From Escherichia phage AV104, in the sequence record OR352935.1: 43,102 bases of DNA; one strand, given 5' to 3'. The position numbers were made by a program, and so were the translations under genes. Shown here one piece after another: positions 2,731 to 40,659 of the stretch. The notes under the pieces were generated by a model that was not told the origin of the DNA, ran no database searches, and saw nothing but the letters and a program-made list of their open reading frames with translations. Position 1 is the stretch's first letter. Every line of letters starts with the position of its first letter.

Positions 2731-2766
2731 GTTCACATATAGCCCCGAAAGGGGCTTTCTTATAGT

Positions 2767-4308: not shown

Positions 4309-4336
4309 AGGCCCCATAATGGGGCCTTAGATTTTT
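4309..4336. terminator. bidirectional hairpin terminator between convergent genes
   Basis: AGGCCCC-ATAAT-GGGGCCT stem-loop followed by TAGATTTTT. Confidence 0.55.
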
Positions 4337-4641
4337 CCTATTAGATTTTTAATTCTGTCGCGTTCTATTCTTTTCCCTTCTTCTACTCCCTCATTGAAGT
4401 ATCTTTCTACATCATCCTTATTGACCTTACGAACTGCTGCGCCCTCTTTATATAGCTCTTGATTGTCGCGCAATACCTTAATCTTAGCGATTATTTCATT
4501 AAAAGGTGCGTCAGCACGTATTTTGAGCATAGACCTTACCTGTTCTACGAACCATGCAAAATTAGGCTTTTTTGATAATTTCTCTCTTAAAACAGCGTTC
4601 TCTTGTTCCGCTTTTGTGGCGCGAGCACGATAATCAATCAT
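4327..4641 (-). CDS. hypothetical protein (reverse-strand accessory gene)
   Basis: 104 aa, Lys/Glu-rich; its own promoter motif lies at 4681-4710; opposite orientation to flanking structural genes. Confidence 0.5.
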   Translation of the reverse strand: MIDYRARATKAEQENAVLREKLSKKPNFAWFVEQVRSMLKIRADAPFNEIIAKIKVLRDNQELYKEGAAVRKVNKDDVERYFNEGVEEGKRIERDRIKNLIGKI

Positions 4642-4680: not shown

Positions 4681-4710
4681 TGAATAGTACCCTATTATAT
4701 CGGGGCATGT
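4681..4710 (-). promoter_or_regulatory. promoter/operator motif (TGAATAGTACCCTATTATA) for gene 4327-4641
   Basis: minus-strand reading gives TATAATAGGGTACTATTCA, the same motif found in front of the early genes. Confidence 0.4.
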
Positions 4711-4778
4711 AAACTATTTATTTACGTATTCCAGTTATTCCCCTCAATTGTAAATGTTGGAATAAACTATTCGAATAG

Positions 4779-4807
4779 TTGACTTTTCACTGAAAATATG
4801 CTAAGCT
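4779..4807 (+). promoter_or_regulatory. sigma70-like promoter (TTGACT-17 bp-TAAGCT with extended TG), copy 1
   Basis: TTGACT at 4779-4784, 17 bp spacer, TGcTAAGCT; near-identical to 35881-35909; preceded by perfect palindrome ACTATTCGAATAGT (4766-4779). Confidence 0.5.
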
Positions 4808-4814
4808 CCACCTG

Positions 4815-4925
4815 AGCTTGTGAAGTATGAACAAGCGACCGCGGCGCGGGCAGGTAACGGAGCGGGACGTAAGTCCTGAGTGTAGTTACGCTGACGCGTT
4901 CGGAAGGGCCATACTCTATTGCTTG
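4815..4925 (+). ncRNA. candidate structured RNA element, copy 1 (paralogue of 35917-36026)
   Basis: about 110 nt conserved between two loci with shared blocks (GCGACCGCGG, GAGTGTAGTT, TTCGGAAGGGCC) and differing but complementary hairpin arms; no ORF longer than 9 codons; downstream terminator at 4988-5016. Confidence 0.3.
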
Positions 4926-4987
4926 TGTAAAAAGTAACTGGTTTACTGAGATTACGCCGTTTCTATGTTTAAATGATAAGGCCTAGC

Positions 4988-5016
4988 GCCCCGCTTTATG
5001 GCGGGGCTTTACTTAT
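4988..5016 (+). terminator. rho-independent terminator
   Basis: GCCCCGC-TTTATG-GCGGGGC stem followed by TTTACTT, just upstream of the spanin RBS. Confidence 0.5.
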
Positions 5017-11721: not shown

Positions 11722-12192
11722 CTACTCATGGTTTTCATGGAAACCGTATTTACTCTCCGCGGCTTTACGCGCGGCAACCGCTAGACCAAAATCGTCGTAA
11801 AGCCCTAAATGTACTTGTTTGTAGTTAACTTTTATAAACGCGCGCCACTTACCCGCGGCTTTGTGGAAACTTACACCTGTAGCCCCGGATTTATTTATCT
11901 TTCGCATAGTTTTATTTTTACTGTTCCCTGTATTGTCGGTGGCGCGTAGATTTTCTATTCTATTGTCTAGCCTGTTATGGTTTATGTGGTCTATTTGAGT
12001 TTTCCTGTCTAAGTTGCATTTATTATAAAGACACCATGCTATGCGGTGGACATACACTGTTTTACCACCCATACCGCAGCACAGATAGCCTCTTACACCA
12101 ACCGTACCAACCTCAGCGCCAGTAGATATCCTGGTCACCTGCCCCGTCTCAGGGCAGTATTTAAATTGTTTTGAAACATCAATATATCTCAT
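11722..12192 (-). CDS. HNH homing endonuclease with AP2 DNA-binding domain
   Basis: 156 aa; HNH_3-type motif (VHRIAW ... IDHINHNRLDNRIENLR) followed by AP2-like GVSFHK..GKWRAFI...LGLYDD. Confidence 0.7.
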   Translation of the reverse strand: MRYIDVSKQFKYCPETGQVTRISTGAEVGTVGVRGYLCCGMGGKTVYVHRIAWCLYNKCNLDRKTQIDHINHNRLDNRIENLRATDNTGNSKNKTMRKINKSGATGVSFHKAAGKWRAFIKVNYKQVHLGLYDDFGLAVAARKAAESKYGFHENHE

Positions 12193-13319
12193 CTTAGCAT
12201 CTCCGGTGAGATTGAAAGCCTACCTACTTCCCCGAACTCTGAACTATAGGTTATGACGTTAGCGGACCTCTTAGACATCCACCCGCCGCGAGAAGCATAT
12301 GCATCTTTCGCCGCGAGAGTGCGATGCTGCTCCACTACCATATTCCTACTTTCTACAATCTTTTGGTGGTGGAGATGCCCGACATGCGCATAACTGTACT
12401 CGCTTTCGCCAAATGCTTTTCTGAACTTAGCGATCATAATGGGTTCTACCACCTCAAACCGGCATTTATGTCCGTGTGTAAAGAACAGCGTCGTTTTGCC
12501 GTGTTGCACCATCTTATAAACATCCGGCGACGTATCGACGAACACACGAGGCTCGTTGTCGTACAGCGTACTGAACATCTCAGCCAACCAAATCATTCCG
12601 CTTTCGTCGTGGTTCCCTTGCACGATAAGCAAGCGAACATTTTTGTGTTTAACCAGCGCCATATCAACAACACGGCGGACCATACGAATCATGTAGCGTA
12701 CCAGTTTCTGGTAGCGAGTGTCTGCGTCCAACACATGGCGAGACTCAGGGGTGACGGCATCCAGACTATCGAAGTGCGCAAAATCCCCCAGAAGGTTAAT
12801 AACTCCTGTTCCCGCATCTGGCGCTTTCTGAAACGCCGCGTCGAACCAACGAGAGAACAGATCTTCCGCAATCTTCATATCCCAGTCGTCGCCGCTCTCG
12901 TCGGCCCAGGCCAGCATACCGAGATGAAAATCAGATACCGTGTAAAGATTGAGTAGCTTGTCGTCACGTTTGGCGCGAACGGCTTTAACAGGAGCAACGG
13001 GGGTAATCTCCGACTTCATCCCTTCGATTACGGCTTTCATCAACTCTACCTGACGTTCGGCGTCGGTATCAGTCTTAACCCATTGCAACTTAGTGTTGCC
13101 GAACTCGTCCACTAGTGACGATGTTCCTTTAATCTTGTAGCCGTCAGGAACAAGGTGGCTGACGTCGCGCCCGTGGCCTACGCCTTTCTTAGCCAGCTTC
13201 GCTTTACGGATGCGAATAACGCGGTCTGAGATGCCATATTTACGGGCGATGTCGATATTCTTCATACCGGCGTTCAATTCTTCCTGCAACTGTTCGTCGG
13301 TTATTTTCTTCCGGGCCAT
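12189..13319 (-). CDS. calcineurin-like metallophosphoesterase with N-terminal HTH
   Basis: 376 aa; phosphoesterase motifs D-x-H (SDFHLG), GD..D (GDFAHFD), GNHD, THGH, GHLHH; N-terminal HTH-like segment (IDIARKYGISDRVIRIRK). Confidence 0.7.
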   Translation of the reverse strand: MARKKITDEQLQEELNAGMKNIDIARKYGISDRVIRIRKAKLAKKGVGHGRDVSHLVPDGYKIKGTSSLVDEFGNTKLQWVKTDTDAERQVELMKAVIEGMKSEITPVAPVKAVRAKRDDKLLNLYTVSDFHLGMLAWADESGDDWDMKIAEDLFSRWFDAAFQKAPDAGTGVINLLGDFAHFDSLDAVTPESRHVLDADTRYQKLVRYMIRMVRRVVDMALVKHKNVRLLIVQGNHDESGMIWLAEMFSTLYDNEPRVFVDTSPDVYKMVQHGKTTLFFTHGHKCRFEVVEPIMIAKFRKAFGESEYSYAHVGHLHHQKIVESRNMVVEQHRTLAAKDAYASRGGWMSKRSANVITYSSEFGEVGRLSISPEMLR

Positions 13320-13383
13320 GCTTATTCCTCGTGCTTAGGATTTGTCCTATTTAACCACAGTGGATTCCTTTAAATAAAGGCAA

Positions 13384-13710
13384 CTATTTACTTTCTGCGC
13401 CTATCGCCCACCCTGTCATTACCATTTGCAGACGGGTGGCTGTCAGTAGGCTATAGAAAGCATCTCCGTTTTTCTCTACCGAACGTATCACTGTGTAGGT
13501 TACGGCCTGCGGGGGTAGGCCCGATTTACCAACCTCCACGGCGGCCTCACACTCGCGAACTGTAGAGTCCTTGAACGCCTTTACAATAGTAGGGTCGGCT
13601 TTCTCGAGCACACCAGAAGTCATAAGAACAGATTCACTAAATACCTGTTCGCACGGAGACCCAAAAGTAGCAAAAGACATAAAACCCAGAGCTAGTACTA
13701 ATTTACGCAT
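13384..13710 (-). CDS. small secreted protein (signal peptide)
   Basis: 108 aa; N-terminal MRKLVLALGFMSFATFG hydrophobic signal sequence; first gene of the reverse-strand island. Confidence 0.5.
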   Translation of the reverse strand: MRKLVLALGFMSFATFGSPCEQVFSESVLMTSGVLEKADPTIVKAFKDSTVRECEAAVEVGKSGLPPQAVTYTVIRSVEKNGDAFYSLLTATRLQMVMTGWAIGAESK

Positions 13711-13735
13711 AATTATTTCCTCAGTAAGTTACATG

Positions 13736-13768
13736 TGAATAGTACCCTATTATATTGGGGTGTGCAAG
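13736..13768 (-). promoter_or_regulatory. promoter of reverse island (TTGCAC-17-TACTAT containing TATAATAGGG motif)
   Basis: minus-strand reads CTTGCACACCCCAATATAATAGGGTACTATTCA, almost identical to the promoters at 36190 and 37632. Confidence 0.45.
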
Positions 13769-25383: not shown

Positions 25384-26026
25384 GCGGGGTAAGGCTGCGT
25401 ATTGTTTTTGTCCTCACCGATTTACCGCCTAATTTATTGTGTTGGTCGGAGTACCCATCAACCACGGCGACACATGATTTAACGGGCATCACAAAACCGT
25501 TACCCGCCCAAATACATGTCTTCTTAGGGTACGCGTCCCGCGGTTTTATGTATTCGGGGAACATTGGGTGCGTGTCGTCTTCGGGTAAATAGCCGCCGTA
25601 TTCGTACGGATTGAACGAATAGTCAGGCTTGCGCCATAAAGACGAAAGAACGCTAACCGGGTTCTCAATCATATAAGGTACGTTGTACTTTTTAGCCAGA
25701 CGCGCAGCCACTTTGCATGTAATCACGGCCTCTACCTGAAAAGTTGGATTCTTCTTCCGCTTCGTTTCGAAATGCGCTGCGCCGCTAACAGCTAAATCTG
25801 TGCACGGAGGGAACGCAAAAATAATATCCGGCGCAACCTCGAAGTCGAATTTATTGTCAATCCACGCGTTTATATAGTGGATGTTCTCGTGTTCAACTTT
25901 TGCGCCCAATCGCGCGTAGTCGCCGTGGTCGGCACCGTCGTAGTTGAAACAATAGCAAGTATGGCCCGCTTCCGCCCACGGTTGGGCCATGAGGCCCGAA
26001 CCGTCGAACAATGACCAGATAATCAT
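25343..26026 (-). CDS. compact C5-cytosine methyltransferase-like protein
   Basis: 227 aa; motif I LFDGSG, motif IV FPPCTD, ENP (motif VI-like), C-terminal RSLTPRGFAKA (motif IX/X-like); no room for a large target-recognition domain. Confidence 0.5.
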   Translation of the reverse strand: MIIWSLFDGSGLMAQPWAEAGHTCYCFNYDGADHGDYARLGAKVEHENIHYINAWIDNKFDFEVAPDIIFAFPPCTDLAVSGAAHFETKRKKNPTFQVEAVITCKVAARLAKKYNVPYMIENPVSVLSSLWRKPDYSFNPYEYGGYLPEDDTHPMFPEYIKPRDAYPKKTCIWAGNGFVMPVKSCVAVVDGYSDQHNKLGGKSVRTKTIRSLTPRGFAKAVHEANHV

Positions 26027-26509: not shown

Positions 26510-26824
26510 TTATAATTCCTTATATTGTTGGGGTATGTGCTTACTATAATAGTCTGCTATTAGGGTGTCAATCTGTTTTATCGAACCAACGACAAAAACA
26601 TTCGCGCCACGTTTACGCATCCGCTCGTGCTCGCGTAACTGGTGTGGGTCTGGCTTCGTGCTTTCATCTTTCTTAACCTCAACGAACCAGATGATGCCGC
26701 CGGGGAGGATTACCAACAGGTCGGGCGCTCCGTTTCGGCCCTCATACACTATCTTACGAACGAGGCCCCCCAGGGCCTCGAATCGGTCTTTCGCGTATTT
26801 CTGTACGCGGCCCTCTTTAGTCAT
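26510..26824 (-). CDS. VRR-NUC domain nuclease
   Basis: PD-(D/E)XK-like motif (GAPDLLVILPGGIIWFVEVKK ... HQLREHE); ATG at 26824 coupled to upstream tiny ORF (track start 26839 is TTG). Confidence 0.7.
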   Translation of the reverse strand: MTKEGRVQKYAKDRFEALGGLVRKIVYEGRNGAPDLLVILPGGIIWFVEVKKDESTKPDPHQLREHERMRKRGANVFVVGSIKQIDTLIADYYSKHIPQQYKEL

Positions 26825-30294: not shown

Positions 30295-30349
30295 CGTGAT
30301 TTCTCGCTTTTAAGTTTACTCCGGGAGCTGCCCGGCCAGTGATTAGAAC

Positions 30350-30368
30350 TATAATAGCTAACTATTCA
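30350..30368. promoter_or_regulatory. promoter/operator motif TATAATAGCTAACTATTCA
   Basis: same quasi-palindromic motif as at the early promoters; lies upstream of gene 29662-30294 (minus). Confidence 0.35.
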
Positions 30369-30595
30369 GAAGTCAAATAAAATTTTGCAATAGTGAGTAT
30401 GTTCTCGAAGTCACGCATGTTAGCAGGTTCAAATTCATCCTCTATAGGTTCGTATCGCATCATCGTACCGTTCAGGAACGTGAACGATTCCGAATGTAGA
30501 TAGCCGTTCCAGCGCCATACCATCACAAAATCTTTATCAGTCGGCATTTCATTTACTTGAATCATTCCAAATCCTCCTCTGTTACTTGATTCCAC
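30362..30595 (-). CDS. hypothetical protein
   Basis: 77 aa ORF. Confidence 0.4.
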   Translation of the reverse strand: MESSNRGGFGMIQVNEMPTDKDFVMVWRWNGYLHSESFTFLNGTMMRYEPIEDEFEPANMRDFENILTIAKFYLTSE

Positions 30596-32115: not shown

Positions 32116-32616
32116 TTATTCTTCTTCGAAATACTTGTTCTTGATTGCTGTCAGGCGTTCCAGGTATTCCGCCAGGTCTTCGTCTTTAATCGCAGCAATC
32201 TTCATTTTCTTACCGGTGAACTCTTCCAGCAGTTCATCAGAATCATCACACGCGGCATCGCTTGGGCCTTCGTTAATCGCATCGTCGATAGCCTGAATCT
32301 GGTCACGCAGAGACTGGTAGTCGACTTCTTGTTTCTCTTCTTCCGGTTCTGGCGTATGTTCCTCTACTTTAGCTTTACGAGGTTTGCGTTTCGGCTTCTC
32401 GTCTTCTGCCGGTTTAGTGTCAACGACGTCTTCACCTTCGACCGGGATTTCTTTTGTTTCTTCTTTGGCGCACTCGGCTACCGCTTCTTTGGTATACACT
32501 ACCTTCTCTACTTCCAGCGGCTCGGCAGCCTGAACAACTTGTTTCGCACTGTTCGCAGCAATCAGTTCATGTGCAACTACGAAACGTTCCAGTAATACTA
32601 AGAATTTCTCTAACAT
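32116..32616 (-). CDS. acidic hypothetical protein, first gene of leftward operon
   Basis: 166 aa, strongly Glu/Asp-rich with a central Lys/Pro basic patch; directly downstream of the divergent early promoter region. Confidence 0.5.
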   Translation of the reverse strand: MLEKFLVLLERFVVAHELIAANSAKQVVQAAEPLEVEKVVYTKEAVAECAKEETKEIPVEGEDVVDTKPAEDEKPKRKPRKAKVEEHTPEPEEEKQEVDYQSLRDQIQAIDDAINEGPSDAACDDSDELLEEFTGKKMKIAAIKDEDLAEYLERLTAIKNKYFEEE

Positions 32617-32648
32617 TATTTATTCTCCTCTCGTTTGGTATGGGTAAC

Positions 32649-32667
32649 TATAATAGCTAACTATTCA
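32649..32667. promoter_or_regulatory. promoter/operator motif TATAATAGCTAACTATTCA in divergent control region
   Basis: quasi-palindrome; on the minus strand followed by leader AAACGAGAGGAG and the ATG of gene 32616. Confidence 0.45.
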
Positions 32668-32694
32668 TTATGTCAATGGGCTTTTCTAAAATAA

Positions 32695-32716
32695 TTAATA
32701 TGGTACTATTCACATA
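32695..32716 (+). promoter_or_regulatory. promoter-like motif (TTAATATGGTACTATTCA) upstream of HTH gene
   Basis: degenerate copy of the early motif 25 nt upstream of the RBS of gene 32741. Confidence 0.35.
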
Positions 32717-32740: not shown

Positions 32741-32956
32741 ATGCAACCATCTGAACTAGGCATCCGTGTAGAACAACGCCGCAAAGAACTAGGCATCTCT
32801 CAGCGCCGTCTGGCGGTTTTGGCTGGCGTTTCCCAGGGCGCGATTAACCAGCTAGCACTTGGAGTAACTCAGGACGTCCGCCCGGCGACGCTGTTTAAAC
32901 TGGCAGAAGTGCTGCAAGTAGACGCCAAGTGGCTGGCGTTTGGTGAAGGGGCTTAA
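32741..32956 (+). CDS. XRE-family HTH transcriptional regulator (Cro-like)
   Basis: 71 aa; LGISQRRLAVLAGVSQGAINQL helix-turn-helix signature. Confidence 0.8.
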   Translation: MQPSELGIRVEQRRKELGISQRRLAVLAGVSQGAINQLALGVTQDVRPATLFKLAEVLQVDAKWLAFGEGA

Positions 32957-32970
32957 CGCCCCTTTCTTTT
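32946..32970 (+). terminator. rho-independent terminator
   Basis: AAGGGGC-TTAAC-GCCCCTT followed by TCTTTTT. Confidence 0.55.
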
Positions 32971-35317: not shown

Positions 35318-35608
35318 TTATCTATTAGCCAGACATTCCATCAAATGCGCGTACTTACGATAATAATCTACGACAATCTCATCACCGAAATACTGATAAA
35401 CGTACGCTAAGTGGTCAGAGACATCGATGGAAGCCGACATTGTGCTGAGTCTTCGGAGACTAATCAACTGTAATTCTTCTGTAACGCAAAACGGTGAATA
35501 AGAGTCCAGCTTACAAGAAACGTTAAAGCACAACGCATATTCGCCTTGCACTAAATAAACCATATAAGCACTGTCATTTTCTTTATCGTGGAAAATTACA
35601 CCTTTCAT
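35318..35608 (-). CDS. hypothetical protein
   Basis: 96 aa ORF. Confidence 0.4.
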   Translation of the reverse strand: MKGVIFHDKENDSAYMVYLVQGEYALCFNVSCKLDSYSPFCVTEELQLISLRRLSTMSASIDVSDHLAYVYQYFGDEIVVDYYRKYAHLMECLANR

Positions 35609-35775
35609 TTCACGTTCTCCTTAATCCACGCCTCAACTTTATTACGGTCAAATGTACCAGGTAAACGGCGACCCATTACTTTAACGCTGCAATCAGGAAA
35701 CTTTCCACTCTTAATCCAGTTATTGATTGTCTGGCGGGTGACTCCGATTAATTCTGCAACTTCATTGATAGTCAT
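35605..35775 (-). CDS. AlpA/Xis-like HTH DNA-binding protein
   Basis: MTINEVAELIGVTRQTINNWIKSGKFP matches the AlpA-type HTH pattern; ATG at 35775 with AGGAG RBS (track start further upstream is less likely). Confidence 0.6.
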   Translation of the reverse strand: MTINEVAELIGVTRQTINNWIKSGKFPDCSVKVMGRRLPGTFDRNKVEAWIKENVK

Positions 35776-35815
35776 TTCGCGCTCTCCTGTGTAAGATGTA
35801 TCGAAGTATAAGGCG

Positions 35816-35855
35816 GTAACTTTGTAAAAGCAACCAAAACTGAACACAAAGTTAC
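35816..35855. repeat. 10-bp perfect inverted repeat GTAACTTTGT / ACAAAGTTAC separated by 20 bp
   Basis: read directly; lies between divergent promoters (AlpA-like operon leftward, RNA element rightward). Confidence 0.6.
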
Positions 35856-35880
35856 TAAGATACAAAAGATGCTACTGGTA

Positions 35881-35909
35881 TTGACTTTTACTTAAAAATA
35901 TGCTAAGCT
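35881..35909 (+). promoter_or_regulatory. sigma70-like promoter (TTGACT-17 bp-TAAGCT with extended TG), copy 2
   Basis: near-identical to 4779-4807. Confidence 0.5.
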
Positions 35910-35916
35910 TCACTGA

Positions 35917-36026
35917 GCTTGTGAGATATCGCAAGCGACCGCGGAGCGGCAGGGAACGCAACGCGTGCCATTAGGCACTTGAGTGTAGTTCCGCTGGCGC
36001 TTTCGGAAGGGCCAAAGTCTATTGTT
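35917..36026 (+). ncRNA. candidate structured RNA element, copy 2
   Basis: paralogue of 4815-4925 with compensatory hairpin (GUGCC-AUUA-GGCAC here versus GGGAC-GUAA-GUCCU in copy 1); followed by a large hairpin at 36091-36150. Confidence 0.3.
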
Positions 36027-36090
36027 AATCCCGCCTAAATACCCAAGTCACTGATAATTAAAAGTTTCTATAGTTGCCGTAAGCAAGGTG

Positions 36091-36150
36091 GAGAGTACTT
36101 CACTCCGCTGGGGTGGGCTAACGCCCACCCACTGCGTTGCGTACTCTTTT
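36091..36150 (+). terminator. complex hairpin / possible terminator
   Basis: GGGTGGGC-TAAC-GCCCACCC inner stem, outer GAGAGTAC/GTACTCTT pairing, then TTTT. Confidence 0.35.
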
Positions 36151-36189
36151 AAGAAACGAAAGAATCACAACGGCAACGTAACTTTTCTC

Positions 36190-36218
36190 TTGCACACCCC
36201 AACATAATAGGATACTAT
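36190..36218 (+). promoter_or_regulatory. early promoter (TTGCAC-17-TACTAT, spacer contains CATAATAGG)
   Basis: conserved with 37632-37660 and minus-strand 13736-13768; followed by conserved leader TTATCGAAACGAGA..GAGGAG. Confidence 0.45.
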
Positions 36219-36252
36219 TCACTTATCGAAACGAGACAGAGGAGTGAGGGTT

Positions 36253-36447
36253 ATGTTTAAACGTGGTCAGTTGGCTAAAACGAAGCGAGGCGAACAGTAC
36301 GTAATAGTGTTGCAGGACGAGAACGAGTATGACGAGGATAAGCTGGTTGACGTATGGGGTCTGGTAAGAAAGAAACCCGGGTTCGCCTTACGCGATAATC
36401 TGAAACTCATCGGCAACAATTTTAAATTCAAAGGGGATAACACGTGA
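36253..36447 (+). CDS. hypothetical early protein
   Basis: ORF with GGAG RBS; first gene after the early promoter. Confidence 0.45.
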   Translation: MFKRGQLAKTKRGEQYVIVLQDENEYDEDKLVDVWGLVRKKPGFALRDNLKLIGNNFKFKGDNT

Positions 36448-37631: not shown

Positions 37632-37660
37632 TTGCACACACAGATATAATAGACTACTAT
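37632..37660 (+). promoter_or_regulatory. early promoter (TTGCAC-17-TACTAT, spacer contains TATAATAG)
   Basis: same architecture and leader (GTTATCGAAACGAGAGGAG) as 36190-36243. Confidence 0.45.
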
Positions 37661-37691
37661 TCAGTTATCGAAACGAGAGGAGAGAGAGAAG

Positions 37692-40576: not shown

Positions 40577-40597
40577 TCTGTTTTCCACAATGACTAG

Positions 40598-40626
40598 TTG
40601 ACTATTACCATCGACCCTATTATATT
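40598..40626 (+). promoter_or_regulatory. sigma70-like promoter TTGACT-17-TATATT
   Basis: canonical spacing; spacer contains CCCTATTATA motif; followed by leader ...CGACAACGAGAACGGAG and ATG at 40660. Confidence 0.5.
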
Positions 40627-40659
40627 TACTCCATCGACAACGAGAACGGAGTATAGAAG

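Follow-up and report, generated by a model that had tools for sequence, protein, structure and literature searches.

Where the rightward small early genes of Escherichia phage AV104 start (36.2 kb), a promoter-like sequence contains a short inverted repeat that recurs at distant places in the genome. This raises the question of whether the repeat is a promoter signature, a recombination patch or an operator, and, in the last case, which protein would bind it. The window analyzed here, i.e., the whole 43.1-kb stretch of DNA, represents essentially the entire genome of a lytic E. coli siphophage of the genus Kagunavirus (Guernseyvirinae) and has a G+C content of 50.7%. Around the motif region, Henuyfy11N, EF2-1 and BUCT789 are 97–98% identical to the window, and the gene order is that of the annotated relatives fBC-Eco01, EF2-1 and Jerseyvirus SE2. 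Structural and lysis genes are located on the plus strand and replication and recombination genes on the minus strand (23.6–35.8 kb); in addition, the structural region holds two reverse-strand accessory cassettes (4327–4641 and 11722–13710). Searches of the window for tRNAs and Rfam families found none.

Copies of the Dyad and Their Promoter Contexts

The core motif is a 14-base inverted repeat, AATAG-N4-CTATT, which far outnumbers every other 5-mer dyad in the genome. The window contains 7 exact copies (0.05 expected) and 12 copies at ≤1 mismatch (1.0 expected), and no AATAG/CTATT pair at spacings other than 4. With its flanks, the consensus reads (T/G)AATAG-N4-CTATT(A/C). An extended 19-mer, TATAATAG-N3-ACTATTCA, which the preliminary description had reported in at least eight copies, gives 10 matches at ≤3 mismatches (0.28 expected): it is exact at 4681(−), 13736(−), 30350, 32649 and 37645, whereas a single base differs at 36203 and three bases differ at both 32694 and 40591. 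The earlier observation is thus real, but the list omitted a copy at 26545–26563 and the one-mismatch dyad at 4774–4787. Three copies (26545, 30350 and 32649) belong to genes on the minus strand and thus have the opposite orientation to the gene that they serve.

Ten dyad copies, at 4683, 4774, 13738, 26548, 30353, 32652, 32697, 36206, 37648 and 40593, are associated with promoters and look functional, whereas the one-mismatch matches at 2761 and 20859 are probably chance occurrences, whose number equals the chance expectation. The intergenic location claimed for the motif holds: 8 of the 10 promoter-associated dyads are wholly non-coding in a genome that is only 8% non-coding, one overlaps a stop codon and one falls within the final 50 nt of the resolvase gene. 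Each of them precedes a start codon by 24–58 nt or belongs to the promoter of a non-coding RNA cassette. The promoters and their associated elements are as follows (coordinates, strand, feature).

36190–36195, plus: −35 hexamer TTGCAC of P36206 (class A), in the TTGCAC-17-TACTAT pattern
36206–36219: dyad AATAG-GATA-CTATT of P36206, overlapping the −10 hexamer TACTAT (36213–36218); half-sites invariant in 36 orthologues
36224–36252, plus: conserved 5′ leader TATCGAAACGAGA...GAGGAG (RBS), before the ATG at 36253
37632–37661, plus: P37648, class A, TTGCAC-17-TACTAT, dyad 37648–37661, followed by the same leader as P36206
13738–13767, minus: class A promoter of the accessory operon 13710←11722, dyad 13738–13751
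4683–4713, minus: class A, TTTACA-18-TACTAT, dyad 4683–4696, for gene 4641←4327
32697–32710, plus: one-mismatch dyad AATAT-GGTA-CTATT in the XRE gene's own promoter, overlapping the extended −10
26543–26571, minus: class B, TTGACA-17-TATAGT, dyad 26548–26561, in the 3′ end of the resolvase gene, for 26508←
30348–30376, minus: class B, TTGACT-17-TATAGT, dyad 30353–30366, for the ssDNA-binding protein and DNA polymerase genes
32647–32676, minus: class B, TTGACA-18-TATAGT, dyad 32652–32665, for the operon 32616←, divergent from the XRE gene
4774–4807, plus: class C, TTGACT-17-TAAGCT, one-mismatch dyad AATAG-TTGA-CTTTT over the −35; RNA cassette promoter
40593–40626, plus: class C, TTGACT-17-TATATT, one-mismatch dyad ACTAG-TTGA-CTATT over the −35

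Relative to the −35/−10 hexamers, the dyad adopts three registers, and it can face either way with respect to the gene. In class A (36206, 37648, 13738, 4683 and 32697), it overlaps the −10 and is centered at about −12.5; this class reads TTGCAC-N7-TATAATAG-N3-ACTATTCA, with TACTAT as the −10 at 17–18 bp from the −35 and two −10-like hexamers 10 bp apart. The XRE gene promoter at 32697 has an extended −10 (TGgTACTAT) in place of a −35. In class B (26548, 30353 and 32652), the dyad covers the spacer and the −10 with its center at about −18.5, and the sequence reads TTGACA-N2/3-TGAATAG-N4-CTATTATAGT, in which the asymmetric flanks are inverted compared with class A. In class C (40593 and 4774), the center is at about −33.5 and itself forms the −35 TTGACT (A[A/C]TAG-TTGA-CT[A/T]TT).

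We infer promoter activity from the sigma-70 consensus, i.e., from −35-like and −10-like hexamers 16–18 bp apart upstream of genes, which are consensus predictions. Class B promoters match 10–11 of 12 hexamer consensus positions and are the three best sigma-70-like sites within 23.5–43.1 kb, and the class C promoter at 40598 matches 10 of 12. The class A sequence TTGCAC-17-TACTAT retains TTG, TA and the final T but matches only 7 of 12 positions, and therefore its promoter activity is assumed. This shared architecture occurs exactly three times, at 36190, 37632 and 13739–13767(−), just as had been described (0.21 expected).

Several promoters have further features. The dyad at 13738–13751 also lies inside a rightward GTTACA-17-TATATT site (13728–13756) facing the tail genes. 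P40598 is located just after a strong terminator and heads an operon that continues into the terminase and head genes. The perfect palindrome ACTATTCGAATAGT at 4766–4779, reported to abut the RNA-cassette promoter, indeed adjoins TTGACT at 4779, and arises from an extra CTATT upstream of the dyad at 4774. A leader, ATCGAAACGAGA, had been regarded as common to several copies; it is exact at 36225 and 37667, but elsewhere only partial, at 40629 and 32632(−). Similarly, the copies had been taken as an early co-regulated set, and early genes do carry the dyad, but this is too narrow, as promoters of replication genes and two promoters heading late operons carry it too.

In two relatives (L001, 3919–3932; L002, 14178–14191), an extra reverse-strand gene with its own class A dyad promoter is present between the portal and head-morphogenesis genes. 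The corresponding site of the window (2731–2766) is without this insert and has just a one-mismatch dyad-like sequence (2761–2774) overlapping the next start codon. Downstream of P30353, the leader includes a conserved hairpin, CCGGGCAGCTCCCGG (30310–30345, minus strand), which is not followed by a T-run and is also found in Jerseyvirus SE2 and St162.

The window also carries two paralogous non-coding cassettes, 4779–5010 and 35880–36135, both on the plus strand, which are 79% identical, most closely over the first ~190 nt, and have an identical TTGACT-17-TAAGCT promoter. The first lies a short distance before the head operon, with a terminator-like hairpin at its end (4988–5007); the second lies a short distance before P36206 and is followed by a G+C-rich hairpin (36111–36130) which is not listed by the terminator scan. 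Related sequence is present in Cornellvirus SP-031 (L004, ~25490–25700), and no Rfam family was found for either cassette. These cassettes could be cis-acting (put-like) elements or regulatory RNAs.

Conservation of the Dyad Within and Between Genera

For seven promoters, 30–38 unique orthologues each were obtained from fBC-Eco01, EF2-1 and SE2 and from 36 Kagunavirus loci in IMG/VR. Minor alleles have a mean fraction of 0.007 in the half-sites, compared with 0.083 in the N4 center and 0.067 in the flanks (half-sites vs. center, p = 1e-6; half-sites vs. flanks, p = 2e-5; Mann–Whitney), values that are partly confounded with conservation of the overlapped −10 hexamers. Thus, the half-sites are near-invariant and the center is free across the 36 Kagunavirus loci. 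At P26548, for example, the orthologues have nine different centers and unchanged AATAG and CTATT.

At P37648, 24 of 30 unique sequences are TAGAATAG, in which the TATAAT hexamer in the left half of the dyad is lost (reading TAGAAT) and the dyad is kept and becomes more symmetric. This excludes TATAAT as the −10; in addition, no −35 or TG is located at a proper distance from it. Imperfect dyads are conserved as such: the AATAT mismatch of the XRE promoter is kept in 38 of 38 orthologues and the ACTAG half-site of P40593 in 30 of 31. This suggests that perfect and conserved-imperfect dyads differ in affinity in a graded manner.

The dyad is also found in other genera. Jerseyvirus SE2 has TAATAG-N4-CTATTA at orthologous promoters. 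In Cornellvirus SP-031 and St162, AATAG-N4-CTATT is absent and a variant, A(A/T)TA(C/G)-N4-CTAAT, is enriched at orthologous promoters; one of these Cornellvirus-like dyads straddles the −35 just after a terminator. This variant was found by reading the orthologous intergenic regions, having been missed by a repeat search of Cornellvirus. A common form, AWTAS-N4-STAWT, occurs 7 times in the Kagunavirus, 6 in SE2, 5 in SP-031 and 6 in St162, compared with 0.5–0.7 expected; only spacing 4 is enriched, other spacings showing no enrichment in any of these four genomes of three genera. A lambdoid control genome shows no enrichment of AWTAS-N4-STAWT.

These patterns of conservation and register better match an operator bound by a dimeric protein than a promoter signature. 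An element recognized by a polymerase or a sigma factor would be confined to a single register and a single orientation, whereas an operator superimposed on promoters is not so restricted. Near-invariant half-sites, a strict 5-4-5 geometry and varied registers likewise support the earlier proposal of a promoter-embedded candidate operator that would tie the early genes to the reverse-strand cassettes.

An explanation requiring no trans-acting factor has to be considered at this point. The repeat might be a strong sigma-70 promoter of a phage-specific flavor which has been copied with its leader, the palindrome resulting from overlapping A/T-rich −10-like hexamers. Consistent with this, every copy overlaps a promoter, the −10 sequences TACTAT, TATAGT and TATATT are built from dyad bases, the identical leader at two copies suggests cassette duplication, and PHIRE detected the motif as a promoter repeat. 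However, the half-site located in the sigma-70 spacer, which sigma-70 does not read, is as constrained as the −10 half-site, while adjacent spacer bases vary. Moreover, the 5-4-5 symmetry is held in all registers and orientations, even astride the −35, and in none of the four genomes is a spacing other than 4 enriched. We therefore regard this explanation as unlikely.

Two Small HTH Proteins as Candidate Binders

The window encodes two small HTH proteins, both of which had been proposed to bind the motif.

32741–32956, plus: 71-aa XRE/HTH_3 protein, 434-Cro-like, candidate repressor
35605–35775, minus: 56-aa HTH_17 (AlpA/excisionase-like) protein, rival candidate binder

The XRE gene is monocistronic: a promoter of its own, which carries a dyad, precedes it, and a terminator lies at 32945–32965. 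Its product has a Pfam HTH_3 domain (residues 11–65, E = 1.2e-12) and belongs to PHROG transcriptional repressor families. The best PDB sequence match is a full-length one to 434 Cro (1zug/2cro/3cro; E = 4.9e-7, residues 6–68), which also has 71 aa, and P22 C2 is another significant match. A single-sequence AF2 model consists of five helices (pLDDT 84), and a Foldseek search with this model gives 2cro as the top hit (TM 0.72–0.78), followed by 434 repressor, SinR and P22 C2. The XRE protein is present in Kagunavirus, Jerseyvirus and Cornellvirus (51% and ~40% identity), and is the only HTH protein common to all three genera. Among the matches listed, its closest relative outside the Guernseyvirinae is the annotated Cro of a lambdoid Klebsiella phage, whose cI–cro spacer contains ACAA-N6-TTGT 14-mers. 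Of the two candidates, the XRE protein is favored, as it is 434-Cro-like, is present in three genera and has the dyad in its own promoter.

434 Cro binds 14-bp dyads with the consensus ACAAG-N4-CTTGT, in which the outer 4–5 bp are contacted and the center is not. This is the geometry seen in AATAG-N4-CTATT. The likeness thus includes protein length, best match by both sequence and predicted fold, and an operator of 14 bp with conserved outer bases, a free center and overlap with promoter hexamers. In 434, a Gln residue reads base 1, and this Gln is conserved in the XRE proteins. P22 C2/Cro operators have a TTAAG-N4-CTTAA core, with the same 5-4-5 geometry and a non-contacted center, and P22 C2 is likewise an HTH_3 protein, although its operators are clustered in a temperate immunity region and have another half-site sequence. 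As in systems of the 434-Cro/P22 type, an HTH_3 protein with Cro homology and a Cro-like fold is found here together with symmetric operators that overlap promoters, including the regulator's own predicted promoter.

The differences from 434 are also clear. Here a CI partner, an integrase and a bistable switch of three operators are all lacking; single operators are spread over about ten promoters of a lytic genome instead of being clustered at OR/OL; and the half-site sequence differs. The gene divergent from the XRE gene (32116–32616, minus strand) is the first of the leftward operon, where a CI gene would sit, and encodes a very acidic, Glu/Lys-rich protein of 166 aa (phrog_3127), which is conserved in the three genera. 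A CI-like role of this protein was considered and rejected, as it is acidic, has no Pfam, HTH or peptidase domain and belongs to a PHROG of unknown function. A CI/Cro bistable switch of the lambdoid type was rejected on similar grounds: no CI-type gene is present, the single operators are ~45 bp apart and no integrase is annotated in relatives. In the dispersal of its sites, the system resembles that of the P1 C1 repressor, in which one repressor acts on operators scattered over the genome. P1 C1 is, however, an unrelated, larger protein which binds asymmetric 17-bp sites and maintains lysogeny.

The recognition helices do not covary cleanly with the operators. These helices are SQGAINQ in Kagunavirus, SQSLITH in Jerseyvirus and TQSAISH in Cornellvirus; Kagunavirus and Jerseyvirus share the half-site but differ in the helix, and the Jerseyvirus helix resembles that of Cornellvirus although the dyads differ.

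This leads to the alternative that the dyad is an operator bound not by the XRE protein but by the 56-aa HTH_17 protein, which is AlpA/excisionase/Cox-like. The distribution of HTH_17 is suggestive in this respect: all 442 records of homologues are Kagunavirus or Jerseyvirus-type, with none outside, and these are the two genera having the exact AATAG-N4-CTATT, while Cornellvirus-like phages, with their different dyad sequence, lack the protein. HTH_17 is also better conserved between Kagunavirus and Jerseyvirus than the XRE protein (79% vs. 51% identity), and the promoter of the HTH_17/primase operon (~35800–35835, minus strand; TTGCTT-17-TATACT) has no AATAG dyad, as might be the case for an upstream regulator. 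However, HTH_17 cannot explain the dyads of Cornellvirus-like phages, which lack the protein and yet retain the 5-4-5 dyad family at orthologous promoters. The only PDB relative of HTH_17 is a monomeric excisionase-type protein (4j2n, E = 0.08), the 56 aa include no dimerization domain, and excisionase-type proteins usually bind direct repeats rather than 14-bp dyads. Binding of the dyad by HTH_17 is, in our view, quite unlikely.

Two other modes of action of HTH proteins at promoters were rejected. Loading of antiterminators of the Q/AlpA type involves a binding element between the −35 and −10 and, after +1, a −10-like pause element (PMC9371919), and the dyad resembles this in that a protein-binding element would lie between the −35 and −10 and class A promoters have paired −10-like hexamers. 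P. aeruginosa AlpA, however, is much larger: its N-terminal segment forms a ring in the RNA exit channel, and the contact residues of its C-terminal HTH are numbered 128–142 (PMC9371919), whereas the 56-aa HTH_17 protein is an HTH alone and is not comparable to it; furthermore, the dyad is symmetric and at some promoters is located over the −35. A MerR-type spacer operator was excluded because the spacers are 17–18 bp, not 19–20 bp, and HTH_17 lacks a C-terminal domain, whereas MerR-type activators dimerize through a coiled coil.

At 35816–35855, a perfect 10-bp inverted repeat, GTAACTTTGT-N20-ACAAAGTTAC, flanks the −35 of the HTH_17/primase promoter. As a candidate second operator it was rejected, since the second arm is not conserved among Kagunaviruses; its significance is doubtful because this arm is missing in many of them, which have an extra gene there.

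A Putative Cro-Type Regulon in a Lytic Phage

Taken together, the motif appears to be a genuine operator-in-promoter element, most likely that of a 434-Cro-type repressor regulon in a lytic phage. Specifically, we consider it moderately probable that the 14-bp dyad in about ten host sigma-70 promoters is an operator which is most likely bound by a dimer of the 71-aa XRE protein and mediates repression. We infer this binding, the direction of regulation and its timing from sequence comparisons and predicted structure. Searches of the literature found no studies of binding, transcription starts or expression in the Guernseyvirinae, and none linking the XRE protein to the repeat. Such a mechanism, in which a Cro-type dimer occludes sigma-70 promoters, would be a textbook one, and the system would be of an ordinary kind.

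The proposed course of events is as follows. On infection, the host sigma-70 polymerase would fire all the dyad promoters, including that of the XRE gene. As the XRE protein accumulates, its dimer would occupy the dyads, with one recognition helix per AATAG half-site, and block the polymerase from the −10 or −35; since the dyad overlaps the −10, the spacer and −10, or the −35, a bound protein should exclude RNA polymerase. Early and middle promoters with perfect dyads would be shut off, i.e., those of the early rightward operons (36253→ and 37692→), the leftward replication and recombination operons (32616←, 30294← and 26508←) and the reverse-strand accessory cassettes (4641← and 13710←). The one-mismatch dyad at the XRE promoter would be acted on more weakly, resulting in autoregulation, and repression would be weaker or delayed at the class C promoters, which serve the late operon at 40598 and the RNA cassette at 4779 ahead of the head operon.

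A more far-reaching role of the XRE–dyad regulon can be envisaged, in which it acts as an immunity-like global silencer and the genome is kept in a quiescent carrier state that replicates episomally. The dyad is present on most recognizable promoters and absent from that of the HTH_17/primase-helicase operon, so that the XRE protein could hold the genome quiescent. For Jerseyvirus SGP-C, turbid plaques, superinfection immunity and episomal "lysogens" have been claimed, and the phage has been called temperate on the strength of its XRE "repressor" gene, the argument resting in part on the XRE and HTH_17 genes (PMC8790156). A carrier state would explain these observations. Still, we think it very unlikely that the regulon works in this way.

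Sites of the dyad also coincide with genome mosaicism. Mosaic junctions (30370–30420 and 36150–36260; loci L007–L043) are located at promoter-operator-leader cassettes: the sequence upstream of P30353 is highly variable, and P36206 has alternative sequences before it as well as beyond its leader. The cassettes may thus also act as recombination linkers. It is a different and stronger claim that the cassettes are mainly homology patches for recombinational shuffling of modules, or that the dyad is read by a host regulator. The junctions among the 36 Kagunavirus loci at P30353 and on both sides of P36206 are in line with the former, as are the reverse-strand accessory genes, which are variably present between genomes and each carry a dyad copy. 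Recombination linkers, however, need no two-fold symmetric core with a free center, and the dyad is altered in Cornellvirus-like phages that share the Salmonella host; no regulator of E. coli or Salmonella is known to us that recognizes AATAG-N4-CTATT. Either version of this claim is thus highly improbable.

In fBC-Eco01, a PHIRE repeat with the consensus tgAATAGTa-ccTATTat-T has been read as the promoter of a phage-encoded RNA polymerase (PMC9825357); this repeat is the dyad repeat at orthologous positions, 6 of the 7 PHIRE features carrying the dyad. The available part of the report on vB_EcoS-Golestan similarly gives seven PHIRE "phage-specific promoters", though not their sequences (PMC7203180). 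In their available portions, the two papers assign the repeat to transcription by a phage RNA polymerase, which the genomes do not encode, and describe neither dyad symmetry, variable register nor a link to the XRE protein. This assignment has a negligible probability and was rejected on gene content and mixed orientation, as the annotations of fBC-Eco01, EF2-1 and SE2 include no RNA polymerase gene, all large ORFs of the window are otherwise assigned, the copies at 26548, 30353 and 32652 run opposite to their gene, and canonical −35/−10 hexamers flank it.

A repressor regulon of the Cro type would have consequences for the understanding of the whole subfamily. Hundreds of Guernseyvirinae phages have been sequenced and are under development against E. 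coli and Salmonella, and the XRE gene, which is called "repressor" or "Cro" in GenBank records, regularly raises doubt as to whether these phages are truly lytic. The operator regulon would give this gene a concrete, testable role in the lytic programme, and corrects the published assignment of the repeat to a non-existent phage RNA polymerase. The roughly ten promoters, some of whose operators are perfect and others conserved-imperfect, are a resource for studies of temporal control, for repressible phages and synthetic circuits, and for annotation. If the silencer role were true, a therapeutic subfamily regarded as "strictly lytic" would have a cryptic, Cro-only dormancy switch.
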